The notes beneath the pieces are model-generated. The model was not told the origin of the DNA, made no database searches, and saw nothing but the letters and a program-made list of their open reading frames with translations. A DNA stretch of 64,000 nt from an uncultured Gemmatimonadales bacterium (lineage in GTDB: Bacteria > Gemmatimonadota > Gemmatimonadetes > Gemmatimonadales > GWC2-71-9): positions 858,856 to 922,855 of the forward strand of contig CAVOSV010000001.1 of NCBI GenBank assembly GCA_963698975.1. The letters are read 5' to 3'. The position numbers and the translations under genes are program-made. Shown in pieces: positions 36,701-58,658 of this stretch; the first letter of the stretch is position 1, and every line of letters begins with the position of its first letter.

Positions 36701-37193
36701 GCATGACGAAGAAGTGGAGACCTTCGGCGGCCCTCACCGAATACACCGAGACGATGTTGGGATGGTTGAGATGGGCGATGGTGATCGCTTCACGGCGGAA
36801 GCGGTCGATCATGCCTTCGCCCATCAGCAGCCCGGGCGACATCACCTTGATGGCCACATCGCGATGCAGGGACAGCTCGTGGGCCAGGAATACCGCGGCC
36901 ATCCCGCCCCGTCCCAGCTCGTGGCCGATTTCGAACTCGCCCATCGTGGCGCGCCGGAGCCGGGCTATGACTTCAGCCCAGGGAGATTCGTCTTCGGTCA
37001 GCTCGCCAGAAATCGAGTGAGAGTCAGGCCGGGGGATGCCTGGAGTGCCGCACTTGGGGCAGGTCTCGTCGGTCTGCAGAAGGAACTCGCCACAGCTCGC
37101 GCACCACAACAGCTCCGCTCCGCACTGGGCGCAGAAGCGGTCATCAGGCCCGAGCGGGCCAGTGCACTGAAGACAGGCAATAGGCGTGGTCAT
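33705..37193 (-). CDS. Hanks-type Ser/Thr protein kinase with double Zn ribbon, Big_2 repeats and one TM helix
   Basis: Four CxxC; LGRGGMAAV, VAIKV, HRDIKPANI, DFGIAK, GTPAYMSPEQ; about six WSSxD Big_2 units. Confidence 0.93.
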   Translation of the reverse strand: MTTPIACLQCTGPLGPDDRFCAQCGAELLWCASCGEFLLQTDETCPKCGTPGIPRPDSHSISGELTEDESPWAEVIARLRRATMGEFEIGHELGRGGMAAVFLAHELSLHRDVAIKVMSPGLLMGEGMIDRFRREAITIAHLNHPNIVSVYSVRAAEGLHFFVMRCIQGRSLEEVLKDAGRLPLATVRSILYQVGSALAYAHRFKVVHRDIKPANILIDGDGNAVVTDFGIAKAAEGPSHTHTGFMVGTPAYMSPEQCAGGEVSGASDQYSLGVVAYEMITGAPPFNGSTYSVIQAHVEQPPRPLHERGDCPPELESAILRMLAKNSEERWPSMTQALTALGAAALPEDDPARAELSRFAMAGARTAFESSGNGSHAAAKSSAILQATPPGMMRAVSILPPPAGLEVGDSFLLVARVHDGQAARLPTSPVQWSSDSPGVLRVNATKAVATAVTSGMALIRAICDGQEGRLRVTVAPPRADSIVVKAVDKAITVGDEIQLEATPRDKRGRALDRPVTWRSEDDTVATVSLDGVLTARSGGSVRVIAELDEARANVGVTVLPPRVAAVHISAAPDSVVAGDSFALTATPLDRWAGALTDRSVAWSVSDVNTAVVTAGGWVITRNPGHIMLTAVCEGVSSSISVNVLDRTPEPIVSRPRPDPIPWELPPEPRSPEPRRSRHRPGWLVAAGGAFLVAGGFWLVGERGRGDLPAIPDTAIALRDSSVSTEDPGLGSAGYLIASASEPTDSAVVDTSAPVSVTITRRPAHSLAVGATSALSAESRDGNGKMVGSERISWSSTDSTVLTVDSAGVVQALAPGRAQIVAAAGGHRDSAGIVVRSAPRPAVLPQLASLSIASSAPLQVGDTLTLALSGQDESGKPIPGVRATWSSSDPSIASVEQSSGLIRARAPGGTLIIARSGGESAISSVSVAPAPVASVDVSGARPLKVGDTLDLRAAPQDQRGAELSGHAAVWASSNPDVASVDSSGVVVALAAGTADISASVDGKAGKVRVTVLPQPRTSRADLAAEEARRSSPTTPASDPAAERLRLTDEMRRGVDQCYNAVAQKDVSELEELYHPESKTDQDNLKKLSRILRTSEWSAQVGEREDGAQRIGSATASMEFALRLSWKDAFGGRLTSHPVFRVEFVKDGTSLDLSSCRIIGTPDL

Positions 37194-37906: not shown

Positions 37907-39485
37907 CCTTCTGGCGCAGCACTTCCATGGCGGCGTTGCGTCCATTGATCGCAATCACGCTCCCGCCCGGGTAGGTCCCTGCTCCGCAAAGAAAAACGCC
38001 GGTCATCGGCGTGGTGGGCTTGAGGCGTTGGTCCCACATGTACTCCGGGAGACACTCGCCCTGGAAAATGTGTCCTCCGGTCAGGCCGGTCCGCCGCTCG
38101 ATGTCAGGCGGACCCATCACTTCCAGCTGTAACACGGCTTCGGGAATGTTGCTGCAGAACCGGCCGATCGATTCCAGAGCCACACGGGCGACCTCTTCCC
38201 TACGGGTGTCCCAGCTTCCGGTGCTGAACCGGTAAGGAACCGGCTGGGCAAAGATGCTCATGATGTGTCTACCTTCCGGCGTCACGCTCGAATCATGCGA
38301 GCTCTGGAAGTACAACTCGGTCCAGAGCCGGGGAGGCAGCCCGCCGGCCTGGGCAGTCTGATAATGCGAACGCCATTCGTCTTTGCTGAGCGGGGTATTG
38401 ACCTGCCCGAGATGATGCGGCTCCAGCGTGCCCGGCCGGGCCCGAAAGTTCGGTAGCTCACGGAGCGCCACGGTGATCTTGACCGTGCAGCCGATCATCG
38501 GAATCCGCTCCACCTGCTCCCGCCATTGCGCATCGGCTTCGCTATCCAACAACCGGAGAGTGGTGCGCGGGTCCGCATTGGAGATCACGACCGGAGCTCG
38601 CAGCCGCTCTCCCCCCTCCAGCTCGACGCCCTCGCCGGGCAGAATGCGGCTCACCGGTGCTTCGGTCGTAACCTGGACCCCGGCCTTGCGAGCGACGTCC
38701 GCCAGGATAAACGAGACCCGGCCCATGCCACCCTTGATGTAGCCCCACATGCCGGGGATCCCACCCATCCGGCCCGAGGCATGATGGAAGTGGATCGACG
38801 CCGTTCCGGGCTCGTGCGGGCTGACATTGGTACCGATCACGCCCTGCCCCAAGAGCGACTGCTGCAGCCGTTCATCGCCGAGGTAGCGCTCGACGAATTC
38901 CACCATGGACCACTCGAACAGGAGCCCGATGGCTTCCAGGTCGTGGCCCAGGCGGGACTTGATAACCTCTCGGCTGGGAGCGGGCCCGATCCACAGGTCG
39001 GCCGGGCCGGGCGGACGGAGAGAGTCGCGGACCCGCGCCTTGAGCGCGGACATCGCCCGCCAGCCAGCGAGATCTCCCGGGGCAAAGCGGCGGATCTCCG
39101 CTTCCAGCCGTTCATCGTCTCCCCAGAGCTGCACGCTGCTGCCGTCCTCGAATGGTACGAAGAGGCCGGGCATGGCCGGGTGCCACTCCAGCCCGCGGCG
39201 CACCAGGTCGAGCTCTTCGATCACCAGCGGATGGAGCAGCCCGCAGACATAGGCGCAGGGCGACACCCGATAGCCGGGCCAGGTCTCCTCCAGAGTGCAG
39301 GCGCCACCGATCCGGTTTCGGCTCTCCAGCACCAGCACCTGAAGGCCGGCGCGAGCCAGGTACGCGGCGCAGGTCAGACCGTTATGGCCCGCGCCGACTA
39401 CGATGGCATCCCAGCTCCTGGCTGCCAGCTGCTTGATCGAGGCGGATGGATGCGAGATGAGCTTAGAACCCGGTGATGACGGCAA
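37875..39485 (-). CDS. Phytoene dehydrogenase-like FAD oxidoreductase (PYROXD2-like); start uncertain
   Basis: DAIVVGAGHNGLTCAAYLA, IGGACTLEE, GLTGGHIFQG, LCGAGTYPGGSV. Confidence 0.9.
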   Translation of the reverse strand: MPSSPGSKLISHPSASIKQLAARSWDAIVVGAGHNGLTCAAYLARAGLQVLVLESRNRIGGACTLEETWPGYRVSPCAYVCGLLHPLVIEELDLVRRGLEWHPAMPGLFVPFEDGSSVQLWGDDERLEAEIRRFAPGDLAGWRAMSALKARVRDSLRPPGPADLWIGPAPSREVIKSRLGHDLEAIGLLFEWSMVEFVERYLGDERLQQSLLGQGVIGTNVSPHEPGTASIHFHHASGRMGGIPGMWGYIKGGMGRVSFILADVARKAGVQVTTEAPVSRILPGEGVELEGGERLRAPVVISNADPRTTLRLLDSEADAQWREQVERIPMIGCTVKITVALRELPNFRARPGTLEPHHLGQVNTPLSKDEWRSHYQTAQAGGLPPRLWTELYFQSSHDSSVTPEGRHIMSIFAQPVPYRFSTGSWDTRREEVARVALESIGRFCSNIPEAVLQLEVMGPPDIERRTGLTGGHIFQGECLPEYMWDQRLKPTTPMTGVFLCGAGTYPGGSVIAINGRNAAMEVLRQKVSYSPELSSA

Positions 39486-41575
39486 CCCGCACGGAGCGGG
39501 GCGAGCCCGGGCTGATGTTGTCGTTGCTGTTGGCGGTTGCGTAGTACTGCTGGTCGAACAGGTTTTCCAGGTTCATCTGGAACCGGAGGTGACGGCTCAT
39601 GGTGTAGTAAGCCGCCGCGTCGAACCGGGTGAAGCTGGGCAGCCTCACCGCGTCGTCGATGGCGGCGTACATGTCATCCTGGTAGACCACGCCCATCCCG
39701 AGTCCCAGGGCAGAGGTGGCCTGGTACCGGTTCCAGAGCGACACGGTGTTCCGCGGCACCAGGGGAACCCTGGCTCCTTCCGCTGCCGCCGCAGTCCGGC
39801 TGGTGACCTTCGCATCCTGATTGGCGTACCCGCCGATGATCTGCCACTGGGGACTCACCGCGCCGGTCAGGCTGAACTCGAAGCCTTTGGTACGCTGGCT
39901 GCCGGTCTGAACCGTTCGGGTGGGATCGACTGGATCCGGCGCCGTCGTGTTGGTTCGGTCCAGACGATACACCGCGCTCGAAAGCGAGAGCCGGTCGAAG
40001 ACGTCCCACTTGGCGCCGATCTCGTAGTTCCTGAACTTCTCCGGTTCCAGGGTCGCGCTGGTGACCGTCATCGAGGAGAACTGATCACCCGAGCTGGGCA
40101 GGGCGGACACGCTGTAGCTGGAGTACAGGGTGACGCTCTCGACCGGCTTGAACAGCAGGGCGGCCCGGGGCGATATCAGATCGTCGGTGCGGCTCAGCGC
40201 GTCATTGTTCCGATGATTGTAGAAGTCCACATCGAAGTGCTCGTAGCGCGCACCGACGATTGCCTGCCACTGCTCCGAGAGCACCACCTGGCTCTGGCCG
40301 TAGAACGACAGCGACGTGGCCGTGGAATGATTGTCGGCATCGGTGGCGCTTTGCCGGAAGGTGACCGGAACCGCTATAGTCGGATTGGACACCGGCGCGG
40401 TGATCACCGTGGCCGAATCGTTGAAGTAACCGGTGTTGCGGAAGTTGTCGGTGATCTGCCGGCCGATGGAGAAGCCGCCGAGCAGCGTCTGGCTGATCGA
40501 CCCGGTCACCAGGTGATAGCTCACCTCCGACTCGTTGAACAGATTGCGTCGCTTGGTTGCGTTGTTGTAGGCCGAAATATTGACGTCGGTGCCGGCCGGG
40601 TTCACGGCGCCGGGAAAGACGTTCTGGTAGATCTTGTCGTAGTCGGCAAAGAGGCTTCGGTTCCGCAGAGTGACCAGGCCGCCGGTGGTATGCTCGATGC
40701 TGGCGGTTCCGATGTTCACCAGAGCGTCGGCGTAGCTGACCGACGGATCGCCGAAGAAGGTGCGCGGCGTCGTGGTCGAGAGCGGCGCTCCGGCAAAGGA
40801 CGGAATCCCCCGGTCGGCGGTGCGATTGTCCTTGAAGTGCTCGTAGCTCGCCAGCACCCGGGTCTGGGGCGAGAGCTGGATGGTAGCGGTGGGATTGATA
40901 CCGTAGCGCTCGATGTTGACCTCGTTGCGATAGAGGTCGGAGTTCTCGTAGACCCCGTTCAGCCGGAGCGCGATGCCATCGGTGACGCCCTGCCCCACGT
41001 CCAGGGCGGTGCGCCGGTTCCCGTAGGAGCCGCCCTGCAACGACAGCTCGCGTACCGGCGTCCAGTCCGCCACCTTGGTCACCCGGTTGAGCACCCCGCC
41101 TCCGACTCCGCGGCCGAAGATCAGCGCATTGGCGCCCTTCAGCGCTTCGATCCGCTCGACGTTGTACAGGTCGCGGAAGTACTGGACGTCATCCCGCATT
41201 CCGTTGACGAAGAACCCCGCCGTGGTGTTGTTCCCCCGGATCGTGGCCTGATCGCGGTTGCCCTCTCCCTGCGCCATGGTGATGCCGGGGATGTACCGGG
41301 TCACCTCCCCCATGCTCTCCATCCGCTGGTCGGCAGATGACATTATGGGTGACAACAGTGACCGACTGAGGTACGTCGCGCAGCGGCGTGCGGGTCTTGG
41401 TGGCGGTGCTGGTTTGCGGAGTGAAGTAGGCCGGCCGAGCAGCGCCCTTTACCTCTAAGGTGGGAAGAGTGAGCGGCGTGGTGTCTCGCTGGGCTGTGCT
41501 GGAAGAATCACCCTGGGCCCGGGCAATCGAAGGCAAGCAGGCCAGGAGGAGAATGGGGGCGAGGCGCCTCGGCAC
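39463..41575 (-). CDS. TonB-dependent siderophore receptor (frameshift near 41340)
   Basis: STATKTRTPLRDVPQSVTVV, RDLYNVERIEALKGANALIFGRG, NLENLFDQQYY...PGSPRS...GF. Confidence 0.92.
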
Positions 41576-42737: not shown

Positions 42738-43754
42738 TCAATGATGGTGTTCTGCTGAGTGGTGATGGCCACCATTCATCATTTCAGTGGGGGCACCCTG
42801 TACCCGCACATCGTGCAGGTAGACGGAGTCTCCCCGGGACACTGCAGGCCATGCGCTGCCATCCGCGGGCAGCACGATTCCGCCGATAGCACCCATCCCG
42901 CCGTCTTCCAGCACCTCTCCGGTCGGGTTGTTGTATTCGGCCGTGATGCGGTACAGGTGATCGGGAGTGAGCTGCACGCCGAAGGGCAGGAAGTAATGAA
43001 TCGGCATGCCGACGAGCTCGCCCTCGTCGTCCAGTTTGGGCCGGGCCTCCCAGAGCAGTTTCCCGGCCGAGATGTCCTCGAGCTTGAGGCCGGTGCCGTA
43101 GTCGTGCAGGTGGCTTCCTGCGGCCAGCAGCCGGGCTGCGACTGCCGGACGGCCTTCCCAGCTTCGGGTGGAGCGGCCCGGTGGCAAGTCGAAGGCGTGC
43201 CGGCCAGCCGGCGGCATCACGTCCAGATACACCGGACGGATCGCGACCGGACGGAGCCATGAGGTGGACGGGGTCAGCCCCAGCCGCACGCGGATCTTCA
43301 CCCCGTGATGCTCGGTACCGGTCGGATTGTGCAGCATGGCCGTGACCAGAAGGCTGTCACCGCGATGGATCGGATAGCCCAGGAACCAGGGTAGGCCGTA
43401 CGGCTTGGTTTCCGAGCCCGCCGCACCGATCCGCAGTCTGATCTGGCTGAACAGCTCCCGCTGCTCCGGCGCAATCAGATTGAGGTGGTGAAGCGCTCCG
43501 GGGATCTTCTCGCCTCGCTCGTCCACCACGTCGAATGCGATGCTTCGGAGCCAGCCTTCGACCGGCAACGCGAGGGTGAGAGGCCGGGGCTGCTCGACCT
43601 GATCGTGGCCGGCCCCGGAGGGCAGGTGGTAGGGACCCAGCTCGATGGTGTATTCCTCGGTGGGGCCACCCGCCGCTGCGCCGAGGATGACCGCGAGGGA
43701 GGCGGCCAGCGCCAGCCAGCGCCAGCGCCGGCGAGCCAGGATCTTCCTCACCAT
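42738..43754 (-). CDS. Exported PHM/dopamine-beta-monooxygenase-like copper protein with His-rich tail
   Basis: LHHLNL, LPWFLGYPI...TAMLHNPT, FDLPPG, GSHLHDYG, AEYNNPTG...GGMG; tail EMMNGGHHHSAEHHH. Confidence 0.65.
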   Translation of the reverse strand: MVRKILARRRWRWLALAASLAVILGAAAGGPTEEYTIELGPYHLPSGAGHDQVEQPRPLTLALPVEGWLRSIAFDVVDERGEKIPGALHHLNLIAPEQRELFSQIRLRIGAAGSETKPYGLPWFLGYPIHRGDSLLVTAMLHNPTGTEHHGVKIRVRLGLTPSTSWLRPVAIRPVYLDVMPPAGRHAFDLPPGRSTRSWEGRPAVAARLLAAGSHLHDYGTGLKLEDISAGKLLWEARPKLDDEGELVGMPIHYFLPFGVQLTPDHLYRITAEYNNPTGEVLEDGGMGAIGGIVLPADGSAWPAVSRGDSVYLHDVRVQGAPTEMMNGGHHHSAEHHH

Positions 43755-44861
43755 CCCTGGGCTCGCTCCCAGGCCCGCACGCGCTGGCGGGCCGCGTCGA
43801 ACAGCCGTTCGTAGTTTCCCTTGCGCACTTTCTCGCTAGCCTCGGGCGTGAGTAGAGCCCACAGCGGACGATACATCTCGAACACCGCGTAGTACTGGGT
43901 CGTGTCCCGCGGCGCCACCACGTCCGACCCGAACAGGAATCGGTCGGGATAGCGGTCGATCAGCGTGGCCGCGCGACGGGTGGTCTCGGGTGTCGCCAGG
44001 AGGTACTTGGCGACCTCGTCCCAGCTTATATCGAAGTACACGTGGCGCAAGGCCGGATCGGAAAGAATTCCCTCCACGATCGCGCCCTGATTGGGATTCC
44101 GTTCCGTGACCGGCGCCGAGGCGGAGGCCTGGATCGGACGCACCACCCGCCCCAATCCCATGTGCGCCCAAATAATAGTGGTCTTGGGGTGCCGCCGCAG
44201 CAGGGCCTTCATCTGAGTCAGGAACACCGGCTCGGCGCCCGCCTTGGCAAACGGCATGTCCATGTCGTTGTGGATCAGTACGACCAATCCCACCTCGCCG
44301 GCAAAATCGAGAATCTTGTCCAGTGCCGGATCGGTGAGGCTGGCGACGTCCCCCGCCACCTTGGACGACACGAACTCCTTGTGGATGGTGAACTCACCGA
44401 TCCCGGTGAACACGCCGGGGAAGGTTTTGAGCACCCGGCGGATATGGTCCGCGGCGTACATGTCGGCGGGGTTGAAGCCGGTGATCATGGGGTCGAGCCG
44501 GGCCTGCTCCTCCGGCTTGAGCGACTTGTACGCCATCGCGATGAAGGCGTCGGTGAAGGAGTAGTAGTAGAGCGGCGCGTCGCTCTGCAGGTAATACGTC
44601 GGGGCGTAGTTTCCCGAATTCTCGTACGACCAGGTCTGCTGCAAGGGAATGCCGAACAGCGTGGACCTGTGGGCCTTCTTCCCCATGATCCGGAGGAAAT
44701 CGCGGACGTCGGTGCCTTCCTGGATGTAGTTGGTCAGGTGGAAATGGACGTCATCGAAGTCGTCGCCGCCCTTGTCGGGAGCTCCCTGCGCCGCGAGCAG
44801 CCGGGGAGCCAGCGAGCAGGGCGACGAGACAGGCTCGCTGCCACATCGTTGGTCTGGTCAC
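43748..44861 (-). CDS. Exported amidohydrolase-superfamily protein (frameshift in signal peptide)
   Basis: DVHFH (HxH) upstream of the listed ORF, GIGEFTIHKE, LIHND, WAHMG, DISW, FLFGSD; GTGA overlap with the upstream gene. Confidence 0.85.
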
Positions 44862-46216
44862 AGGAGGATATCCGTGCCGATGGAGATGGTCGTGCCACTC
44901 TGGCCCGAGGTGTAGAACCCGAAGTTCGATGCTGCCGGGCTCTTCTCCACCTTTATGAGGTGCAGGTTCAGCCGCCAGCTGCGAGTGCGGCTGGGATAGA
45001 CGCTCGCGCCCCCGGAAACTTCCCAGGGCTGACGGTCGAAGTCGTCGAACACGTGGCCGTAGGTGAGGTACACCCCCACCAGGCGCGGCACCACCATGTG
45101 CATTCCCTGGACCTGAAATCCCTTATCTACGATGGACTCCAGCGCAAAGGGACCGGTCGTCGCCAGAAAGTCGGAGAGCTTGCGCACGTAGAACTCGCTC
45201 TGGAAGGAGAAGCCTCGATACTTGAAGCCGGCATCGAGGGCGAGCTCGTCGTAAGTCAGCTTATCCACCGTTACCCCGAGGGCGAGAGCGTCGGCATCGA
45301 ACGGATTGATTCCATCGGAGAGCTTGATCTGGGTGGCGTTGGGCGGCGCGGTCTCCGACGCGTAACGCGATTCACGGCTGTGAGCGGCCGATGCGCCGAA
45401 TTGCGTGGCCAGTTTGCTGTGGTACTCGAAGTCGCCCAGTCCGTTCCGGGCCCCAAACTCGCCCGTGCTCGGCCTCCAGACGACGCTGGCGCTGTACGCC
45501 ATGTCGCGGGTGTCGTTGGCGGCCGTGGTACCGAGCTGGCTGATGTTGGTGTTGACCGAGGCCGTGTACCAAAAGCGGTCCACCGGCTGCCCGGTGAGGA
45601 AAACGCCGGAGGAGAAACCGCCGCGAAAGAAGTCCTCGGCCATCTGCCGGTCGCTGGAGCCCCAGAAGGGCCAGGAGCCCTGCATCGAGCGCGCGGTGAG
45701 ATTGGGGGCGATCCCGACACCAATGCCGATGGCCTTGTTGAACCGGTAGTTCAGGTTCCCGAACAGCAGGGTCTGCTGCGTGGTGGGCAGCGACCAGAGC
45801 GAGATGTTGTAGCGGAATTTGGGGTCGTAGAAGAACCCGGTGAGCCAGACGAAGGTCCGGTGCCAGTTGAGGTCGTTGCGCGCCTTGACCGCGCGCTCCC
45901 GGCCCAGATGGTCCGTGAAGGTCTGACCTTCCGACATCTGATTCATGTAGCGGAACACCGCGTAGAAGCTGACGTTGAGGCTGGCGATCTTGGTCTTGGC
46001 GATGTCGAAGCCTTTGGCCGGGGTAAACTCACCGGCGATGTTGATTGGGAAAGGTTGACATCCTGATATGGCGGTCGTGTCGTTGGGCTCCCGTCCCGCC
46101 TCGTCCTGGGCCAGCGCCCCAGCGGGGAGGATCGCGATCGCAACCAGTCCAGCAATGAGTATCGCACCTGCGGTGCACAGCCAGGGGTGGCGTGCCGTGG
46201 TGGTCGCTGGGCGCAT
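44858..46216 (-). CDS. Outer-membrane beta-barrel/porin-like protein
   Basis: Signal ending ALA-Q, aromatic-rich amphipathic strands (GFKYRGFSFQSEFY), C-terminal ISIGTDILL. Confidence 0.65.
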   Translation of the reverse strand: MRPATTTARHPWLCTAGAILIAGLVAIAILPAGALAQDEAGREPNDTTAISGCQPFPINIAGEFTPAKGFDIAKTKIASLNVSFYAVFRYMNQMSEGQTFTDHLGRERAVKARNDLNWHRTFVWLTGFFYDPKFRYNISLWSLPTTQQTLLFGNLNYRFNKAIGIGVGIAPNLTARSMQGSWPFWGSSDRQMAEDFFRGGFSSGVFLTGQPVDRFWYTASVNTNISQLGTTAANDTRDMAYSASVVWRPSTGEFGARNGLGDFEYHSKLATQFGASAAHSRESRYASETAPPNATQIKLSDGINPFDADALALGVTVDKLTYDELALDAGFKYRGFSFQSEFYVRKLSDFLATTGPFALESIVDKGFQVQGMHMVVPRLVGVYLTYGHVFDDFDRQPWEVSGGASVYPSRTRSWRLNLHLIKVEKSPAASNFGFYTSGQSGTTISIGTDILL

Positions 46217-46280
46217 TGTTCGTCTCCGCTCAGGGTTAGAACTTCGGTTGATACGCGCGCTGTGGGTGATGCGAGTTGGC

Positions 46281-47552
46281 TCAAAACTCCAGCTGCAGGC
46301 GGCTCTGGAAAAACTGGGTGTTGCCCTTGAGGGCAAACCGATCGAGCCTGCCGTAGCCGTAGATGAGCTCGAGCCGAAGGAAGTCCGCGAGGAGCCAGTT
46401 GACCATGGGAGTCAGCCGCCAGAAGGTTCCGCCCTGCAGAGTCCCGCCATTGAAGTCGCTGTAGGAGAACCGCAGCAGGACTTCCACCGCCCCCGGCCCG
46501 CCCTCGAACACCGTCCTCTTCGGCGACACCTGCCTGAAGTAGCCACCCACCGTGTTGTAGGAGCGGGTCTCGCCGGTGATCAGCCAGTTGGCGAAGATGT
46601 CGCCGCCGTGAAAAACCGGGTTGCCGGTTTCCGGTGAGCTGGCCCTCTCCCAGTAGTACTCGGTGCCGAACAGCCAGGGACCCGGCCGGTAGTAGGCCTC
46701 GAAACCCAGCAGATCGGCCGACGTCGCGTGGAACTTCCCGGTATCGATGAAGCTGGGGGCGTCGCTGGCTTCCGGCTTGGCCTTGAGCTGGAGGGTGTCG
46801 TCTTCCGGCTTGCCGATGTGGAACGACGCCCCGAGGTGAATCAGCTTACCTGCGCTGTCGGAAGCCATCGGCACCCAGGCAATCCGGCCGGCCACCGCCT
46901 GATGGAAGTAGGAGAAGCCCTCGTCCTTGGACAGCCAGTCGGTGAACACGCCGAGGTTCCAGATCAGATGTCGGCTGGGCACGTACCCCAGCCACTTGAT
47001 GCCGTCGGCCAGAAGGGGGATTGCGTCGGAGAAGGTGAACCGCTCGGCGGTCCAGCCGTCGTATCCGGTCATCACCTTGTTGAGACTGGGCCCCTCCTTG
47101 CTGCGGCCGATCCAGATGTTTCCCCAGAGCTCCGGCACTCCCAGCATCAATCCGGTCTGGCGGACGAACCACTCGTCCACGTAGCCGTCGTACATGAACC
47201 CGGCCTGGTAGGTCAGCCGGCGCTTGGTCTTGATCCGTCCACCGATAAGGATGCGGGAGTCCCGGATCTTGAACCCGGGCTCGAGGTCCCTCTGCTCCTT
47301 GCTCGCCTGGTCCTGGTCGTAGGTGGCGTAGTCCACCAGGAAGCCGGCGCCCACCCGCAGCGTGAACAAGGGTCCGTCGTACTCGTTCCACTTGACCAGG
47401 CTACGGCGGGGTGGCTCGGCCTCGGACTCTCCGGCCGAAATGCCCGCAGCCTCGGTTGTGTCCTGGGCGGTCGAGTCGGCCTGCTGAGCGCAGACCGACC
47501 CGGCCCTGGTCATGGCAAAGGCCAGTAGACCCCAGGCAAAAGCAGAGCGCAT
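46281..47552 (-). CDS. OprO/OprP family anion-selective porin
   Basis: Signal peptide, FKIRDSRILIGG, ANWLITGETRSY, GAVEVLLRFSYSD, C-terminal RLQLEF. Confidence 0.85.
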   Translation of the reverse strand: MRSAFAWGLLAFAMTRAGSVCAQQADSTAQDTTEAAGISAGESEAEPPRRSLVKWNEYDGPLFTLRVGAGFLVDYATYDQDQASKEQRDLEPGFKIRDSRILIGGRIKTKRRLTYQAGFMYDGYVDEWFVRQTGLMLGVPELWGNIWIGRSKEGPSLNKVMTGYDGWTAERFTFSDAIPLLADGIKWLGYVPSRHLIWNLGVFTDWLSKDEGFSYFHQAVAGRIAWVPMASDSAGKLIHLGASFHIGKPEDDTLQLKAKPEASDAPSFIDTGKFHATSADLLGFEAYYRPGPWLFGTEYYWERASSPETGNPVFHGGDIFANWLITGETRSYNTVGGYFRQVSPKRTVFEGGPGAVEVLLRFSYSDFNGGTLQGGTFWRLTPMVNWLLADFLRLELIYGYGRLDRFALKGNTQFFQSRLQLEF

Positions 47553-47567
47553 CGAGGCCGGTTTTCG

Positions 47568-48659
47568 TCAGTACTCGTCGAAGTACCGCTGAATCGTCTT
47601 CGGGTCCTTGGTCTTCAGCAGCGCCAGCCGGAGGAGCACCCGCGCCTTCTGCGGGTTCAGCCCCAGCGAGGCGACAGTGCCCAGGCTGTCGTCGTTTACC
47701 TCCACATTCCGCCCGACCTGGCCGGTGGCCACCCGGGTCGAGCGCACACAGACGATCCCCTTCTTGGCCTGGGCGGCCAGGGCATCGACCGCGCTCTTGG
47801 TCATGTTGCCGTTTCCCACACCCGCGATGACAATGCCCTTGGCGCCTGAGTTGGCCGCCGCCTCGATGATCTTCCCGTCCATGTTCTCGTAGGCCATGAT
47901 GATGTCCACCCGGGGCAGGACCGTGTTCTTGTCCACGCTGAACTCCGAGGTCACCGTGTTCTTCCCGACCGGGCCCCGATACCACTCCGGCTCGCCGTAG
48001 GCGATGGTGCCGATCAGCCCCGACTGGGGAGAGAGGAAGGTCTGCACTGCGGTGGTGCTGGTCTTGGTGAGCGAGGCCGCGCCATGAATCCAGTCGTTGA
48101 CCACCACCAGGACACCGCGTCCAGCCGCGTCCTTGTTGGCCGCGACGGCCACGGCGTTGTAGAAGTTGAGCGGGCCGTCGGCCGAGAGCGCGGTGGATGG
48201 CCGCATCGATGCAGTCAGCACCACCGGCTTCTTCGACTTGATCACGAGGTTGAGGAAATACGCGGTCTCCTCGATGGTGTCGGTGCCGTGGGTGATGGCC
48301 ACGCCGGCGATGTCAGGCTGGGCCAACAGCTCATTGATGCGGGTGGCCAGCTTGATCCAGACCTGATCGTTCATGTCCTGGGAGCCAATGTTGGAGATCT
48401 GCTCCCCTTTCATGTTGGCCAGCTTCTTGGCCTGCGGTACAGCGTTGAGCAGCTGGTCGACCCCCACCTGACCGCTGGAGTAGGCGGCCTGCACGTCGCT
48501 CTCGGCCGCACCTGCGATGGTGCCGCCGGTGGCCAGCACCTCGACGGTCGGCAGATTGGTATTGTCCTTTGCGGGCGCCGCCTGGGCAGCCAGCGATGCC
48601 GTGCCACCCACCCCAGTGAGCAGAGCAAGGACCAATGGAACTGCATTTCGCCGGTACAT
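47568..48659 (-). CDS. ansB: Type II (periplasmic) L-asparaginase
   Basis: Signal peptide; ATGGTIAG, HGTDTIEETAYFL, SMRPSTALSADGPLN, GVGNGN, LNPQKARVLL. Confidence 0.93.
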   Translation of the reverse strand: MYRRNAVPLVLALLTGVGGTASLAAQAAPAKDNTNLPTVEVLATGGTIAGAAESDVQAAYSSGQVGVDQLLNAVPQAKKLANMKGEQISNIGSQDMNDQVWIKLATRINELLAQPDIAGVAITHGTDTIEETAYFLNLVIKSKKPVVLTASMRPSTALSADGPLNFYNAVAVAANKDAAGRGVLVVVNDWIHGAASLTKTSTTAVQTFLSPQSGLIGTIAYGEPEWYRGPVGKNTVTSEFSVDKNTVLPRVDIIMAYENMDGKIIEAAANSGAKGIVIAGVGNGNMTKSAVDALAAQAKKGIVCVRSTRVATGQVGRNVEVNDDSLGTVASLGLNPQKARVLLRLALLKTKDPKTIQRYFDEY

Positions 48660-48707
48660 TGAAGCCTCCTATCGCGTGAACAGAAACGACTTTTCTCGAT
48701 AACCGCT

Positions 48708-50278
48708 CTACTTCTTGTGGTACTGGCTCCGGTCGAGGTTGGTCAGCTTGACCGGATCCATGATGTCGGCGAGCTGCTTATCGGTCAGAAGCTTCTGCTC
48801 CCGGACGATCTCGAGGATGCCCTTCCCGCTCTTGTAGGCCTCCGCCGCCAGCTCGGTGGTCTTCTCGTAACCCAGCACCGGATTGAGCGCCGTCACGATC
48901 CCCACCGTGGTTTCCATGTAGCGGTCCAGCACCTTCTGATTGACGGTGATTCCATCCACGCATTTGGTGCGGAAGGCAATCGAGGTGTTGTAGAGCAGGT
49001 GCTGCGACTCGATCATGGCCACACCCTCGACCGGCTCGTACGCGTTGAGCTGAAGCTGGCCGTCGTGCGCCGCGAGGGTGACCGTGTAGTCGTTCCCCAT
49101 CACCCGGAACGCCACGAGGTTGACCAGCTCGGGAATGACCGGATTCACCTTGCCCGGCATGATCGAGGAGCCCGGCTGCAGCGCCGGCAGATTGATCTCG
49201 GCCAGGCCCGCCCGCGGCCCCGAGGTGAGCAGGATCAGGTCGCTGGCGATCTTGGACAGCTTGACCGCGACGCTCTTCATCGCCGAGGAGTACACCACGA
49301 AGCCCTGCTGGTCCCAGGTGGCCGACAGCATGTCCGGGCGCGGCCTTGATCGGCTTGCCGGTCAGCTTGGCCAGATGGGCGGCGGTGCGCTCGGCATAGC
49401 CCTTGGGCGCGTTGAGTCCGGTCCCGATGGCCGTGGCGCCCATGTTGACGGTGTAGAGATACTTCTCCGCGTCCTGCAGCAGCTGGATCTCTCCGTCCAG
49501 CGAAGACGCAAAGGCGTGAAACTCCTGCCCGACCGTCATGGGCACCGCGTCCTGCAGCTCGGTGCGCCCCATCTTCACGATGTTCATGTACTCGATCGCC
49601 CTTGGCCCGGAATGAGGCGGCGAGCTTCTGCAGCTCGGCGATGAGTTTCCCGTTCCGCAGAATCAAGGCGATCTTGATGGCGGTTGGGTACGAGTCGTTG
49701 GTGGACTGAGACTGGTTCAGATCGTCGTGCGGCTCGAGAACCTCGTAGTCGCCCTTCTTGTGCCCGGTCAGCTCCAGGCCGACGTTGGCCATCACTTCGT
49801 TGGCGTTCATGTTGGTCGAAGTGCCGGCGCCTCCCTGATACCAGTCCACCGTGAACTGGTCGTGGTACTTACCCTGCAGCAGCGCATTGGCCGCCTTCTC
49901 GATGGCCGCCAGCTTGTCCTTCTTCATGGCGCCCACGTCGGTGTTACCCTGCGCCGCGGCCAGCTTCACGATGGCCCAGGCCTCGATGAAGCCGGGATAG
50001 TGGTTGATCGGCACTCCCGAGATCTGGAAGTTCTCCAGCGCCCGGGCGGTTTGAACACCGTAGTACGCGTCGGCCGGGATTTCCTTCGATCCCAGGAGAT
50101 CCTTCTCCGTGCGGGTGGCTCCGCCCTGACTGGCCTGACTGGCTGTGGGCGCCTGGGGGCCCTGTTCGGCGTCTGTCGATTGCGCAGCTGCAGGCGGGGT
50201 TTCCTGAGGTTTGCACGCCCAGGTGAGTCCCAAAGCCATGATCGGAGCCAGCAGCGCGCCCCGTGGTGTTCTTGTCAC
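48708..50278 (-). CDS. aspA: Aspartate ammonia-lyase with N-terminal lipoprotein-like signal (two frameshifts)
   Basis: [61 protein letters not shown]; GTG start with AGGAG RBS. Confidence 0.9.
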
Positions 50279-50304
50279 AGCGACACTCCTTCCTGCTTCA
50301 GCGG

Positions 50305-51339
50305 CTAGCTCTTGGGCTCGACCGCATAAGGATTGGCGTGCAGGCGGTTCACGATCTCGATGATCGCTTTCTGCGCCCGTACGCTGTTGCCGGCATCGTC
50401 GAGTGGGGGTGAAATGACGGCGATGCCGAACTTGCCCGGCGCGACGGCGATGATGCCGCCCCCCACTCCGCTCTTGCCCGGCAGTCCCGTGTGGTAGAGC
50501 CACTTGCCCGTGTCGTCGTACAGCCCGGCCGTGGCCATGACCGCCAGGACGTAGGGCACGTTCTTCGAGCTCATCACGGTCTTGCCGCTCACCGGGTTCT
50601 TGCCCCCGTCGGCCAGGGTGGCGGCCATGGTGGCCAGGTCCTTGGCGTTGACGTTGATGGAGCACTGTTCGGTGTAGACGTCGGTGGCCTGATCCGGCTT
50701 TTCCTTGATGTAGCCGTAGGCGTACATCAGCGCGCCGATGGCCTGGTTGCGCTGGTTGGTGGCCGCTTCGGATTTGAAGACCTCCTCGTTCACGGCCAGC
50801 GGCCGCCCGGCGAATGCCGAGTGCCAGTCGAGGATGCTCTTCCACACCTCGTCCCGGGTACCGCCCTTGACCATGGAGGTGGTGGCGATGGCGCCCGGAT
50901 TGACCAGGGAGTTCATCTCCGGCCCGCCCAGGGCCTTCTGGGAGAACTCCACCGAGACGATCGAGTTGAAGCGCATGCCGGTGGCGTCGACGCCGACCGT
51001 CTTCTCGATCTTCTCCGGCCCATCCTCCTCGATCACCTTGGCCAGGGTGAAGACCTTGGAGATGGATTGGATCGAGACCTCGGTCTTGATGTCGCCCGCG
51101 GTGTAGACCTTCCCGTCGGTAGTCACCAGCGCGATGCCGAAGACCTTGGGATCCACTTTGGCCAGCGCCGGGATGTAGTCGGCGTTCTTTCCTTCCTGGA
51201 GATTCTTGAACTTGGTATAGGTCTCGTTGAGCACGGTGGCGATGTTCGCGGAGCCTTGAGCCTGGACCGGCGTAAGGGCGACGGTGGCTCCGATGGCCGG
51301 CAGGGCGAGCCTGAGGAGGGTGCGGGAAATCGTGATCAT
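50305..51339 (-). CDS. glsA: Glutaminase with signal peptide
   Basis: ADYIPALA, SIQSISK (SxxK), TGMRFNS, VNPGAI, GLYD, PGKSGVGGGI, SPPLDDAGNSVR; N-terminus ...LTPVQA-Q. Confidence 0.93.
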   Translation of the reverse strand: MITISRTLLRLALPAIGATVALTPVQAQGSANIATVLNETYTKFKNLQEGKNADYIPALAKVDPKVFGIALVTTDGKVYTAGDIKTEVSIQSISKVFTLAKVIEEDGPEKIEKTVGVDATGMRFNSIVSVEFSQKALGGPEMNSLVNPGAIATTSMVKGGTRDEVWKSILDWHSAFAGRPLAVNEEVFKSEAATNQRNQAIGALMYAYGYIKEKPDQATDVYTEQCSINVNAKDLATMAATLADGGKNPVSGKTVMSSKNVPYVLAVMATAGLYDDTGKWLYHTGLPGKSGVGGGIIAVAPGKFGIAVISPPLDDAGNSVRAQKAIIEIVNRLHANPYAVEPKS

Positions 51340-51349
51340 GTCGTTGCCC

Positions 51350-52537
51350 TTAGAATGTCTTGGAGAAGTTGTATTTGAAGGAGAACTGGACCTTGAAAAT
51401 GTCCGAGCTGAATCCGTCCTCGAAATTCGTGCGGTCGCCCCATTGGAGCTCGGCGACGGTCATTACGCCCGGCATGGGATAGTACGCCACGTTGCCGATG
51501 GCATAGTTACCGTGGCTGAAGGCGTCGGGAGACTGAAGCTCGCTGTTGTCGATGTCAATCATGGAATAGCCGACCGAGGAGCTGAACTTCGTATTCCACG
51601 TGTGGTCCAGAAACGCCACGACGCCGAAAACTGGAAGCGCGACGCCCTTGATCGGTGCCGTCGCGTTGCCCGGGTTGGTCTCGATGCCAACATCGGCCGG
51701 GGCGTCGTTCATGTAGTTCTGGATGCCTTCGCCGTAGAGAGCCGAGAGTCGGAAGACGTTCTGCTCCCCGACCTTGACGTTGGAGCTCGCGTTGAGTCCC
51801 CAGCCCACAGCATCGCCGCTCAGATCGAACCCGTCGGTGCCCTGGTCTTCCCACTTGATGTATCGGGCGATGCCGGCCAGCTCGACGTATCCCCACTTGG
51901 TCGCACGGCGATATTCAGCGGATAGATCGGGCAAAGGAAACCGTGGTTTCACGTCCGCGATCTCGATCCGGCCCGCCACGTCTCCCTGGTCGGCGCTGGC
52001 ACCCGGCCGCTCGAGCGCGATGGTCATGCGAGTGTCACCCTGGATCGGCATGTAGCGCACCTGGACGTTGCGGAAGAAGGCCATTCCGGTCGGCCCCCAG
52101 TATTCGACCGTGTTGGGAAACACGTCGATGTCCATGAACGGACTCCAGGTCTGGCCCGCGCCGAACTTGCCCAGCTCGCCATAGGCATGGCGAAGCCGGA
52201 GTGTGGTCTGTCCAGCATCCACCCCGGTCCCGAACAGCTCGAACTCGAATGTGGTCTTGAGGTCACCCAGGTCGGTTGGGGTGGTCGACCGCACCCCGAA
52301 CCGGGTCTGCCGCACGCTGAAAAAGGCTTGGCCGTCGGGGGCAAACTGGTTCTCAAAAGCGGGCAGCTTGGTCGGCCGGACCACGTCGAACCAGGCCGGG
52401 TCGATCTGGCCGAAGTTGTAACCGGCGTCCATCATTGCGAAACCGTACACTTCGAATTTGGATCCCGACGTATCCTGTGCCGCCAGACCCACAGGAAGGC
52501 CCCACAGCAACAGTGCGGCGAAGAGACGAGCTTTCAA
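51350..52537 (-). CDS. dcaP: DcaP family trimeric outer membrane channel
   Basis: FEVYGFAMMD, SVRQTRFG, LRLRHAYGELG...GQTWSPFMD, C-terminal QFSFKYNF. Confidence 0.85.
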   Translation of the reverse strand: MKARLFAALLLWGLPVGLAAQDTSGSKFEVYGFAMMDAGYNFGQIDPAWFDVVRPTKLPAFENQFAPDGQAFFSVRQTRFGVRSTTPTDLGDLKTTFEFELFGTGVDAGQTTLRLRHAYGELGKFGAGQTWSPFMDIDVFPNTVEYWGPTGMAFFRNVQVRYMPIQGDTRMTIALERPGASADQGDVAGRIEIADVKPRFPLPDLSAEYRRATKWGYVELAGIARYIKWEDQGTDGFDLSGDAVGWGLNASSNVKVGEQNVFRLSALYGEGIQNYMNDAPADVGIETNPGNATAPIKGVALPVFGVVAFLDHTWNTKFSSSVGYSMIDIDNSELQSPDAFSHGNYAIGNVAYYPMPGVMTVAELQWGDRTNFEDGFSSDIFKVQFSFKYNFSKTF

Positions 52538-52724
52538 GATTGTCCTCCCGAGGCTGACGTGAACACGCGAGTCTCCCGAGCAGATCTCGGAGCGAACCTG
52601 AGCTTTCCTGGATGGGCTATGATAAGGCGGGATGTTCGGGGGGAGGAACTAGACCTTCGTGCAGGAATTATCTGGAGTTAGGCCACCGAGCCCGACATTC
52701 AGGTTGAAGAGAAGAGATGGTTTG

Positions 52725-56110: not shown

Positions 56111-56539
56111 ATGAAGCCCCGAGTCACCCTGATCACGCTGGGCGTAGATGATCTACACCGCGCGCTGACCTTTTATCGAGACGGGCTCGGCTTTCCTACC
56201 AAGGGAATAGTCGGGACCGAGTTCGAGCACGGCGCCGTCGTCTTTATCGAGCTACAGCCGGGACTCAAGCTCGCCCTGTGGCCCCGAGCGGACCTGGCTT
56301 TGGACGCCGGTGTTCCCCAATCTCCGGCCAGTGCAACCGAACTGAGCCTGGGTCATAACGTGGGCAGCAAAGAGGAAGTCGACTCGGTGATGACGCAGGC
56401 CGAGAAGGCGGGAGCCAGAATAGTGAAGCCGGCGCACCAGACGTTCTGGGGCGGATATGCGGGATACTTTCAGGATCCGGACGGGCACCTGTGGGAGATC
56501 GCCTGGAATCCCAGCGCTACCGTACCGACAGCTCGATGA
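56111..56539 (+). CDS. VOC/glyoxalase family protein
   Basis: ITLGVDDL...FYRDGLG, FWGGYAGYFQDPDGHLWEIAWNP. Confidence 0.92.
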   Translation: MKPRVTLITLGVDDLHRALTFYRDGLGFPTKGIVGTEFEHGAVVFIELQPGLKLALWPRADLALDAGVPQSPASATELSLGHNVGSKEEVDSVMTQAEKAGARIVKPAHQTFWGGYAGYFQDPDGHLWEIAWNPSATVPTAR

Positions 56540-58658
56540 CAGCCGCACGCCAAACCGCGGGAAGCCGTAGCCGAAGGCCATCAGTGGTGAGCGCTGCTCC
56601 GGTGATGGGTGCGAGCCGGTGCCCATCCACCGCGACATCGTACGTCGCATGAGGCAGGAGTCCCCGGAGCCTCAAGGTCGTAGCCGCTGAGCTCCGGGCC
56701 AGACGATACGCCAGCAGCACCGCGTGACGCCCCTCCGGCTGGACATACTGCAGCGCGGCCCATCCGGTAGGCGCGTTTCGCCGAGGTGCCGGCGTGAGAT
56801 GGTAAACATCCGCACCCGCGATGGTCCCGCGAATCCGCCGGTAGAGCGCGACATTGTCCGCCACGTGTTTTCGTACCGCGGTGCTCCACTCCGGGATCCG
56901 TCCCGAGATCCCGAATTGTCCGTTCATCGGAACTCGCAGCATGAAGTCCCACCATCCCGGCGAATTGGCCGGATTGACCACCCCGCTGTCCGCATCGCCC
57001 ACCATCCAGTGGTTGCAGATCTCGGGCGCGAACTGCAGCGTGCAGCCGTAGCCCAGCGCGACTGACGCAATCGGATCCACCACGTCGGATAACCAGGCAG
57101 TATGGGTGTGCGCCATGACGCCGAGGTCGAGTCTGAGTCCGCCGCTGGAGCAGTTCTCCAGCACCAGGTCGGGATGCGCGGCGCGGACGCTGTCGAGCCA
57201 GGCATAGTACGCAATAAGATGATCGTGGAGCCGGCGACCGGTTTGTCCGCTCCGAGCCGGATCGAACCGGTCGCCCACATCGATGTTGTAGTCGATCTTG
57301 ATCCAGTCGAGCCGATACCGGCTCACCAGCCGCTCGACGGTGGCGGTGGCCCACTGCCGCACGGCCGCCTGGGCGAAGTCCAGCTGGCAGCGATTGGCCG
57401 TGATCCAGGGCTTTCCCTCATACGGCAGGCACCACTCGGGATGTTCGTGGAAGAGACGGGACTCGGTTCCGGCGTTCTCGATCTCCACCCAGAGCCCGAA
57501 CTTCATACCCTTCTGGTGAACGTGATCGGCGAGCTCCTCGAGACCGCGGGGGAATTTGCGGGGATCGGGCTCGTAGTCGCCCAGGGTTCGCTCCCAGTCG
57601 CCGCTGCCGTACCAACCGGAGTCCAGCACGTACACCTCAGCACCGGCCACCGCCGCTGCATCGGCCGCCTGGATCGTGTTGGTGATATCGACCTTGGGCC
57701 CGAGCGGAAACCAGGTATTGAACTGCACCAGCGGCAACTGATTGGTCTTCACCCGGGGCACCAGGTAGCTCCGTTGGTAGCGATGCATCTGGTTGGCGGC
57801 GTCATCCAGGTCGCCCGCCGTCGCGGTGAAGACGGCGCGCGGCAGGGTAATCGTGTCGCCCGGCGCCAGAGTCAGCACTCCGCCGAAGTCGTTATGCATG
57901 CCGAGTGAAACCAGCACCGCCTGGTCCCGGAGCGGGGCTGCCCCCGTGCCGGGCTGACGCTCGGCCTCCATCCACCAGTTCCCCGACCAGGCAAGCTCGG
58001 CGATGTACTCGACGCCCAGCGTTCGATTGCGGAGTGAAAGCCAAGGCACGTAGCCGTTGCTCGAACGGCCCCGGGTCTGCTCGAAGCGCCGAGCTCCGGC
58101 GGCGAGCGTCTCCGTCGCGAGCTGCCGCTCCTGTCCCCAGCTACCCCAGAGATAGCGCAGGGTGTAGTCGCCGCCGGGAAGCTCCCAGCTGATACTGGGC
58201 AGCCGCGCGACCGGCAGCGGACTGCTGCCTTCATTAGTAAGCCGGATCTCACGGGAGAACACTCCGGTTTCTCCCCATGCGGCGTACCGCAGGTCCAGCT
58301 GCAGAGGGAGGCTTGCGTGGACGAAATGGAGCCGGAGCTCGGTCACGCCGGGTGCTACCAAGACGGTGGAATCGGAGATCAGCCGAAGAGATGTGGGCGC
58401 GAGCGACTGATCGGCCGCGACGCCGGTCAGGTCAGAGCGTGTCTGCTGCGCCGTGTCCGGCGCTCCGCCCATCCGCGAGGTCGGGCCGAAGTAGTCAAAC
58501 GCGACCTGCTGGCCCCGGCGTACCAGGCGATAGGAGACGGGGCCGGACGTGAGGGTCCAGCTCTCTGCCGCCGAGTCGTAGGCAATGCGCTGGGCGGACG
58601 CTGACGTCGAGCAGACCGTTGTAGCGAGCAGCCCAGCCAGGAGCCGGTGAAGAGCCAT
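56517..58658 (-). CDS. Secreted GH36 alpha-galactosidase
   Basis: Signal ASA-Q; FNTW, VLDSGWY, KFGLWVEIE, WIKIDYN, ENCSSGGLR, WLSD. Confidence 0.88.
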   Translation of the reverse strand: MALHRLLAGLLATTVCSTSASAQRIAYDSAAESWTLTSGPVSYRLVRRGQQVAFDYFGPTSRMGGAPDTAQQTRSDLTGVAADQSLAPTSLRLISDSTVLVAPGVTELRLHFVHASLPLQLDLRYAAWGETGVFSREIRLTNEGSSPLPVARLPSISWELPGGDYTLRYLWGSWGQERQLATETLAAGARRFEQTRGRSSNGYVPWLSLRNRTLGVEYIAELAWSGNWWMEAERQPGTGAAPLRDQAVLVSLGMHNDFGGVLTLAPGDTITLPRAVFTATAGDLDDAANQMHRYQRSYLVPRVKTNQLPLVQFNTWFPLGPKVDITNTIQAADAAAVAGAEVYVLDSGWYGSGDWERTLGDYEPDPRKFPRGLEELADHVHQKGMKFGLWVEIENAGTESRLFHEHPEWCLPYEGKPWITANRCQLDFAQAAVRQWATATVERLVSRYRLDWIKIDYNIDVGDRFDPARSGQTGRRLHDHLIAYYAWLDSVRAAHPDLVLENCSSGGLRLDLGVMAHTHTAWLSDVVDPIASVALGYGCTLQFAPEICNHWMVGDADSGVVNPANSPGWWDFMLRVPMNGQFGISGRIPEWSTAVRKHVADNVALYRRIRGTIAGADVYHLTPAPRRNAPTGWAALQYVQPEGRHAVLLAYRLARSSAATTLRLRGLLPHATYDVAVDGHRLAPITGAALTTDGLRLRLPAVWRAAVIELSVR

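Follow-up and report, generated by a model that had tools for sequence, protein, structure and literature searches.

Both aspartase and GlsA-type glutaminase are regarded as enzymes of the cytoplasm, and the aspartase of Pseudomonas is likewise cytoplasmic. In E. coli the aspartase gene aspA adjoins dcuA, a DcuA/B-family carrier gene, and DcuA acts in an aspartate/fumarate nitrogen shuttle. Helicobacter pylori reportedly has a deamidase-transport system, the subject of work by Leduc in 2010. Deamidation in the periplasm is described in Pseudomonas, where a periplasmic glutaminase-asparaginase (AnsB/PGA) is accompanied by the glutamate/aspartate ATP-binding cassette (ABC) transporter AatJQMP and by AauRS control (PMC7962211); a single AnsB-type enzyme serves both deamidations, uptake of the acidic products follows, and the transporter and regulator are linked. 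In Campylobacter jejuni, acquisition of a sec signal moved AnsB to the periplasm and enabled growth on asparagine (PMC4178425), and the AnsB(s)/GGT precedent is one in which gain of a sec signal relocated a cytoplasmic amidohydrolase and opened a new substrate. Products enter Campylobacter and Helicobacter through DcuA/B, DctA or Peb, and aspartate is imported and deaminated by a cytoplasmic AspA. Here we compare with these systems a cluster of eight genes, among them an aspartase gene with a predicted export signal, in a 64,000-nucleotide stretch of DNA from an uncultured soil bacterium of the Gemmatimonadales (GenBank assembly GCA_963698975.1, contig CAVOSV010000001.1, positions 858,856 to 922,855); we call this whole stretch the window and give positions within it.

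The eight genes are co-directional on the minus strand (42738–52537), and an open reading frame listing together with Pfam and NCBIfam scans bore out the order dcaP, glutaminase, aspartase, asparaginase, OprO/P porin, porin-like, amidohydrolase and PHM-like that had been proposed in an earlier, sequence-only reading of this DNA. We think that the cluster probably, though by no means certainly, encodes a periplasmic system for amino-acid deamidation and deamination built of channel-enzyme pairs, and the signal-like N-termini and conserved gene cluster described below agree with the periplasmic deamination compartment that the sequence-only reading had put forward. Like the Pseudomonas AnsB/AatJQMP system, the cluster would deamidate amide amino acids in the periplasm ahead of uptake of the acidic products, but it differs in that a GlsA-type glutaminase and an aspartase both bear signal peptides, the enzymes are paired with channels, and no transporter or regulator is linked; as had been claimed, neither an inner-membrane transporter nor a regulator was found within the cluster or in the immediate neighbours scanned. 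Relative to Campylobacter and Helicobacter the signal lies on AspA itself, and fumarate and ammonium would therefore arise outside. The window AnsB, a type II enzyme with a signal peptide, has the features of a periplasmic deamidase, but neither a linked inner-membrane carrier nor a cytoplasmic-type aspartase accompanies it. Relative to E. coli aspA-dcuA, the same enzyme family is extended N-terminally and porins take the place of the Dcu carrier. We found no description of an exported or periplasmic aspartase in the open-access literature, and the "periplasmic glutaminase" of that literature belongs, by titles, to pseudomonads and one Acinetobacter and is an AnsB-type enzyme in the text examined. 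We take aspartase to be cytoplasmic in the compared systems and periplasmic glutaminase activity to come from an AnsB-type enzyme or GGT. Periplasmic deamidase systems are known, and what would be new here is the signal peptides predicted on AspA and on a GlsA-type glutaminase and the apparent pairing with channels.

The aspartate ammonia-lyase AspA (48708–50278, minus strand) is read over three frames in the window, its fragments matching Lyase_1 (positions 2–312) and FumaraseC_C; the intact orthologue in a related metagenome-assembled genome (MAG), L046, has both domains in one frame. Before the GTG start lies a strong Shine-Dalgarno-like stretch, GGAAGGAG, and the protein opens with a 55-residue extension made of a positively charged start, a hydrophobic stretch ending in LTWAC, and a linker rich in proline, alanine and glutamine. 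The aspA family models start only at residue 54–56 of the window protein. With E. coli AspA, which has no such extension, the L046 protein shares 51% identity, its residue 56 aligning with E. coli residue 6; it scores 656.5 against the subfamily model NF008909 (cut-off 510) and 443 against fumC. The window protein retains, aligned to the E. coli loop, the SS-loop (GSSxMPxKxN), which we take to be catalytic. If exported, AspA is probably lipid-anchored. A Tat (twin-arginine translocation) signal on the window protein was ruled out, its residues being R-T-P-R (the homologue in Gemmatimonadota genome G200 has T-R-R).

Using the N-terminal fragment of the aspartase as query, we scanned one genome for each of 185,579 species and examined the loci around the best 80 of at least 335 confirmed relatives. 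N-termini were judged by a home-made, strict heuristic that demands an n-h-c layout and a cleavage site. In the window it flagged seven of the eight cluster proteins, short of the eight signal peptides claimed from the sequence alone, the OprO/P porin being missed because of an arginine inside its hydrophobic stretch; among four flanking control proteins one was flagged, a GH36 glycosidase. Across the related loci, signal-like N-termini sat directly before the conserved core of the proteins, in AspA (74/80), GlsA (31/33), AnsB (66/68) and the amidohydrolase (20/24), so that an absence of predicted signal peptides, which would have refuted the sequence-only reading, was not what we saw; the lower counts for the barrel proteins (DcaP 20/32, OprO/P 31/41, porin-like 11/18) reflect poor N-terminal alignment. 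Four of the AspA misses were inspected (L051, L053, L056 and L084, mostly long-read MAGs): L051 and L056 have a hydrophobic stretch but no start that could be used, and L084 has no in-frame start. Two others, L048 and L123, have no recognisable core motif. Only one of 33 control AspA loci was flagged, and this one, in G200, itself falls in the exported clade described below, leaving none of 32 non-exported homologues; E. coli AspA was not flagged either. It is very unlikely, in our view, that the extensions are something other than export signals and that the enzymes work in the cytoplasm with ordinary transporters encoded elsewhere. That explanation would fit the 28 of the 80 loci in which DcuA/B adjoins aspA, as for the cytoplasmic E. 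coli enzyme, but the extensions show a positive n-region, an h-region of 10–18 residues and a small-residue cleavage site before the core, a layout kept in those 74 loci though the extension sequences are not conserved, and homologues outside the clade lack extensions. Even uncleaved anchors would leave the enzyme outside by the positive-inside rule.

The 80 loci come from eight named phyla: Acidobacteriota (49), Pseudomonadota (17), Gemmatimonadota (4), Bacteroidota (3), and Verrucomicrobiota, Myxococcota, Latescibacterota and Eiseniibacteriota (one each), with three unplaced. In a quick maximum-likelihood tree of 97 rows, with Shimodaira-Hasegawa-like approximate likelihood ratio test (SH-aLRT) support only and omitting 12 of the 80 loci as well as L041 and L044 for broken or odd length, 68 signal-bearing AspA proteins and that of G200 formed one clade (SH-aLRT 99), whose sister was cytoplasmic Gemmatimonadota AspA, with E. 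coli AspA outside. Taken as a whole, the predicted exported system is well supported computationally. Among protein representatives the clade falls into very few 50% clusters, the top match being a tandem cNMP-binding (cyclic-nucleotide-binding)/aspartase fusion; P0241, a 1420-residue tandem cNMP-binding/lyase, was the only protein with a Pfam-confirmed cyclic-nucleotide-binding domain before the lyase domain. Closer to the window organism, the glutaminase of the cluster was found in only three of 24 genomes of the same genus, two congeners (G002 and G008) hold glsA, the porin and the amidohydrolase without aspA, ansB and oprO/P (G008 also without the PHM-like gene at the locus), and in a 401-genome Gemmatimonadota sample only G200 matched across the aspartase extension. 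The genus, phylum and PHM-neighbourhood tallies include genomes G003 and G185, and locus L132 (from G003) is among the 11 PHM loci considered below; no conclusion rests on these alone. In four genomes of a sister family a signal-less aspA adjoins ansB and an OprO/P porin, and three of them (G304, G161 and G362) have the gene of a DASS carrier (PF00939) in between aspA and ansB; G304 additionally encodes the amidohydrolase, DcaP and a GlsA with a signal-like N-terminus. That DASS carrier was present in none of the 80 related loci. Since the signal-less AspA has a carrier in its cluster and the signal-bearing AspA is without it, we read the aspartase step as having been relocated, a parallel to the gain of a sec signal by AnsB in C. 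jejuni. A separate aspartase-like clade was seen in Gemmatimonadota family f2 (L016–L039; 24 loci in the tree), with proteins about 52% identical to window AspA in frames of 620–740 residues with a long N-terminal extension.

Two of the eight genes are broken in the window sequence, which the sequence-only reading had not mentioned. DNA alignments located two single extra bases in aspA (near 49595 and 49339) and one in the N-terminus of the amidohydrolase gene (near 44812). At both aspA sites, contigs from four public runs (three DNA libraries and one RNA library, 90–99% alike) all lacked the extra base at full depth, and the Illumina MAG L046 (92–99% identical) encodes an intact AspA of 522 residues. 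The base at 49595 is private to the window genome and that at 49339 is common only to L045, while L045 and L048, MAGs of the same series, each have another private extra base. The extra C in the amidohydrolase gene is absent in L045 and L007, and in the congeners G002 and G008 the N-terminus of the amidohydrolase is in one frame, with the HxH motif after a signal peptide. Because the extra bases are absent from Illumina-based relatives and from the contigs of the four runs, all three frame breaks are very probably long-read assembly errors, and we therefore take aspA and the amidohydrolase gene to be intact. The alternative is that both are genuine pseudogenes and that the system is decaying in the window organism. 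Three single-base frame breaks within 9.8 kb would suit decay, as would the break at 49339 in the closest MAG, L045, but the contigs of the four runs and L046 speak otherwise, different private extra bases in three long-read MAGs are the pattern of assembly error, and the rest of the coding sequence is fully conserved with no stops inside the frames; decay is accordingly quite improbable. MAGs of this series (the window genome, L045 and L048) show sporadic single extra bases, one in a GATC context. In long-read MAGs of this kind single-base insertions mimic pseudogenes, and further genes of the window genome that look like pseudogenes may be artefacts too.

Around aspA the related loci share a variable set of partners. 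The asparaginase gene ansB was present in 68 of the 80, an OprO/P-like porin gene in 42 and a DcuA/B carrier gene (PF03605) in 28 (either in 67, both in three), with dcaP in 34, glsA in 32, the amidohydrolase in 23 and the second porin in 19. All seven core genes occur together in 10 loci from four phyla, including those of the cultured Steroidobacteraceae Steroidobacter agaridevorans SA29-B, S. flavus CGMCC 1.10759 and Peristeroidobacter agariperforans KA5-B. In loci holding both genes, direct adjacency was the rule for dcaP to glsA (25/30), aspA to ansB (62/67), ansB to oprO/P (38/41) and second porin to amidohydrolase (14/17), and the order between these pairs was variable (4/32 to 7/18); from conserved adjacency within pairs and variable order between them we conclude that the unit is a set of channel-enzyme modules kept together yet shuffled. 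The cluster is thus conserved, recurring in eight named phyla with its channel-enzyme adjacency, and the sequence-only reading needs amending on two points: its eight-gene unit has conserved genes but is pieced together from three conserved modules and a PHM-like gene specific to the lineage, and the lack of an inner-membrane transporter holds for the window cluster but not for the 28 related loci with a DcuA/B carrier. The near mutual exclusion of the OprO/P-like porin and DcuA/B beside aspA-ansB (L045–L124) may reflect two alternative ways to handle an anionic substrate or product, or phylogeny. An MscS-family channel gene lies near the cluster in 13 of the 80 loci, its frame overlapping the amidohydrolase gene end in S. 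agaridevorans (L094:18678–20255), and its product could be an inner-membrane partner. DUF2950 (10 loci, e.g., L053:16053–17162), DUF4136 (7), serine dehydratase (6) and an Asp-Al_Ex family permease (6) also recur.

Modularity raises the question of whether this is one system at all, or whether an aspA-ansB-porin module, a dcaP-glsA module, a porin-amidohydrolase module and a PHM-like gene without any relation to them simply happen to be neighbours here. The congeners G002 and G008, with their glsA-porin-amidohydrolase set, are what one would expect if so, and the order between modules does vary (glsA to porin-like 7/18, amidohydrolase to dcaP 7/20, oprO/P to dcaP 5/19), ansB and glsA occur together with aspA in only 20 of 48 full-size loci, and the PHM-like gene is linked in one of 11 relatives' loci. 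Yet the modules lie within 10 kb of one another in differing orders in four phyla, the 10 seven-gene loci hold all of them, G304 has six of the genes in rearranged form, and the window genes share one strand. Their spacers, with the starts we chose, are 10, 26, 48, 15, 64 and 11 nt, followed by a 7-nt overlap (ATGGTGA); the claimed gaps of 10–64 nt and this overlap were recovered, and a second, GTGA overlap was not found with these starts. A neighbourhood that persists through rearrangement usually points to functional linkage, and we consider independence of the modules unlikely.

If the cluster does encode a linked periplasmic system, its anion-type outer-membrane channels would admit asparagine, glutamine, aspartate and glutamate, or else some related compound on which the amidohydrolase acts. 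Once these are in the periplasm, AnsB would convert asparagine to aspartate and ammonium, GlsA would convert glutamine to glutamate and ammonium, and the exported AspA would convert aspartate to fumarate and ammonium. The ammonium, fumarate and glutamate could then be taken up by generic, unlinked carriers (elsewhere in the genome we found one Amt, one SDF and one DASS carrier), and in the 28 related loci with DcuA/B the linked carrier could do the uptake. At micromolar substrate levels the equilibrium of the aspartase reaction lies on the side of deamination, and for that reason the step would be feasible outside the cell. The genome search found neither a second aspartase nor a second glutaminase. 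We tentatively favour scavenging of nitrogen and C4-dicarboxylates from dilute amino acids as the purpose, because the core occurs in marine taxa and Dcu is linked in part of the loci. The same exported enzymes might instead buffer the periplasm against acid, ammonia from glutamine, asparagine and aspartate taking up protons in a manner likened to glutaminase-dependent acid resistance and to the periplasmic deamidases of Helicobacter. The window glutaminase belongs to the glutaminase A type (NF009020), which we take to be the acid-activated type of E. coli YbaS, and the 49 acidobacterial loci include many soil MAGs, both in keeping with buffering. The signal-bearing aspA-ansB core is, however, found in neutral or alkaline marine taxa (Pseudohalioglobus sediminis and Rubritalea tangerina) and in Cyclobacteriaceae, the C4-dicarboxylate carrier in 28 loci points to product uptake, and the cluster has no acid-resistance antiporter or regulator; we regard acid buffering as a doubtful explanation.

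Several points, the frame breaks in the window sequence itself and the occurrence of the 49339 base in a second long-read MAG among them, weigh against the periplasmic reading. The contigs covering the aspA sites are only 90–99% alike and therefore may stem from relatives and not from the window strain. The export calls come from a home-made heuristic, a looser version of which had flagged seven of 26 controls before the strict one replaced it. LTWAC is only lipobox-like, being atypical at position –3. DcuA/B, which lies next to aspA in more than a third of the loci, is the classic partner of cytoplasmic AspA. The substrate specificity of AspA is not certain because the L046 protein stays below the TIGR00839 equivalog cut-off (617.3 versus 681.2), and the amidohydrolase offers no substrate lead, having no solved relative by phmmer or with a 15-sequence profile (E ≤ 1) and only "amidohydrolase family" clusters in the atlas. 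The loci were chosen by similarity to window AspA, and their percentages describe its clade and not aspartases generally; it is the nearest AspA relatives that form the exported clade, their share among all aspartases not being shown by such a sample. A consensus scan for promoters and terminators found one promoter-like site outside the cluster and one terminator-like site on the other strand, no more than the shuffle expectation, which does not help the case for a single transcript, though such a scan is uninformative for Gemmatimonadota; nor can contigs from an RNA library prove expression of the cluster. From the DNA we infer export, co-transcription and physiology alike. Three Steroidobacteraceae genomes (G424, G425 and G426; L094, L100 and L095) have a second aspartase-like gene, 48–49% identical to the exported form, plus a fumarase-like one, and exported and presumably cytoplasmic AspA may coexist in them.

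The remaining enzymes and channels were assigned as follows, all on the minus strand; five of the eight cluster proteins had no NCBIfam match. The DcaP-family outer-membrane channel (51350–52537; 395 residues, TTG start, signal peptide flagged) matches PF19577 (3.7e-19; 69.5 bits, gathering threshold 27), with only positions 67–226 of the 410-position profile aligned, and Porin_2 (3.8e-08). The glutaminase GlsA (50305–51339; 344 residues, signal peptide flagged) matches PF04960 (1.1e-103) and NF009020 (425.3 bits, cut-off 395), positions 6–314 of the latter aligning to residues 29–341, and starts with a cleavable-looking signal peptide of about 27–29 residues; among the matches listed were many metagenome copies, at least 80% identical and named "glutaminase". 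AnsB (47568–48659; 363 residues, signal peptide flagged) matches Asparaginase and Asparaginase_C and exceeds the cut-off of the type II model TIGR00520 (444.6 versus 314.3), and falls below that of the E. coli-type equivalog NF008304 (427.4 versus 506). The next gene (46281–47552; 423 residues) encodes an OprO/P-family porin, anion-type by family (PF07396 Porin_O_P, 2.7e-16; 60.3 bits versus 20.9). The porin-like protein that follows (44858–46216; 452 residues from the ATG at 46216, signal peptide flagged) had no Pfam or NCBIfam match (Pfam up to E ≤ 10), but we regard it as a second, divergent OprO/P-type porin because its 39%-identical Steroidobacter orthologue matches Porin_O_P (6.4e-08, 32.7 bits); the label porin-like and the count of three outer-membrane channels given in the sequence-only reading thus hold up. 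The metal hydrolase of the Amidohydro_2 family (43748–44846) matches PF04909 (2.4e-14; 54.2 bits versus 26.4) and is predicted to be exported, with an HFH motif upstream in frame and the ATG and hydrophobic stretch in the other frame, across the break near 44812. Across 15 orthologues H29 and H31 hardly vary, and the protein is 64–72% identical across phyla; an enzyme so highly conserved, predicted to be exported and without a solved relative found deserves attention.

The eighth gene encodes a 338-residue protein (42738–43754, minus strand) resembling type-2 copper monooxygenases of the fold shared by peptidylglycine alpha-hydroxylating monooxygenase (PHM) and dopamine beta-hydroxylase (DBH), its start overlapping the amidohydrolase stop in the ATGGTGA noted above. 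It has an N-terminal hydrophobic helix and a histidine-rich tail, and had no Pfam match even at E ≤ 10, including Cu2_monooxygen and Cu2_monoox_C; the atlas gave only a 0.89 lead to PF03712. There are at least 415 homologues, all hypothetical proteins, and where a source is named it is a Gemmatimonadales or Longimicrobiales MAG. In an alignment of 40 of these sequences H89, H90, H142, H215, H217 and M287 are invariant, and the HH...H and HxH...M sets presumably correspond to the CuH and CuM ligands of PHM in numbering and spacing. A single-sequence AlphaFold model had a predicted local distance difference test (pLDDT) score of 38.9 and was discarded, whereas an AlphaFold2 model from the 40-sequence alignment reached 90.7. 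With the latter, the best 21 rows listed by Foldseek against the PDB were all PHM (best 1.5e-9, probability 1.00, template modelling (TM) scores 0.38–0.54), followed by dopamine beta-hydroxylase (TMq 0.52). The PHM-like label therefore stands at the level of fold, though not of Pfam membership, and copper sites are probably present in the modelled protein. It shares the two-domain beta-sandwich with PHM and DBH but is only 9–14% identical in sequence, has no Cu2_monooxygen match and belongs to a bacterial family. Its gene was present in two of the 80 related loci. Linkage to the amidohydrolase gene was confined to the closest relatives (L045, L048 and G011), G011 being the one of 11 relatives' loci checked that showed it, and we infer that it is a recent lineage-specific addition and not a conserved part of the cluster.

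Upstream of the cluster, a 187-nt intergenic gap (52538–52724, minus strand), the largest gap and 5' of the first gene, presumably holds the promoter; a sigma-70 consensus scan gave no match in it. Beyond it lies a PMT_2-family gene with its stop at 52725, and on the 3' side a DUF481 gene faces the cluster in convergent orientation. Elsewhere in the window, two open frames of about 640 residues overlap on opposite strands (39403–41340, plus; 39463–41355, minus), the plus-strand one without a Pfam match, and a 1162-residue serine/threonine protein kinase (33705–37193, minus) carries a zinc ribbon at its N-terminus and Big_2 Ig-like repeats at its C-terminus. A GH36 alpha-galactosidase whose start resembles a signal peptide (56517–58658, minus) and a multicopper oxidase (59576–60673, minus) showed no relation to the cluster.

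We see roughly even chances that a modular kit for periplasmic ammonification has spread horizontally among abundant soil phyla (Acidobacteriota, Gemmatimonadota, Steroidobacteraceae and others). In this kit the aspartase, the GlsA-type glutaminase, the asparaginase and an Amidohydro_2 hydrolase acting on some further substrate would each be exported and have a dedicated outer-membrane channel of the anion type. The system is directly testable because the three cultured Steroidobacteraceae, which are non-pathogenic, carry the seven-gene version. If the proposal is true, an entire clade of aspartase, a textbook cytoplasmic enzyme, would be exported, and ammonium would be freed from amide and alpha-amino groups outside the cytoplasm. 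Part of soil amino-acid mineralisation would then be extracytoplasmic and potentially leaky to neighbours, ammonification taking place in the periplasm, from which ammonium can leak to nitrifiers or plants. This would change which transporters genome-scale models must seek and, more broadly, models of how dominant, poorly cultured soil bacteria acquire amino-acid nitrogen.

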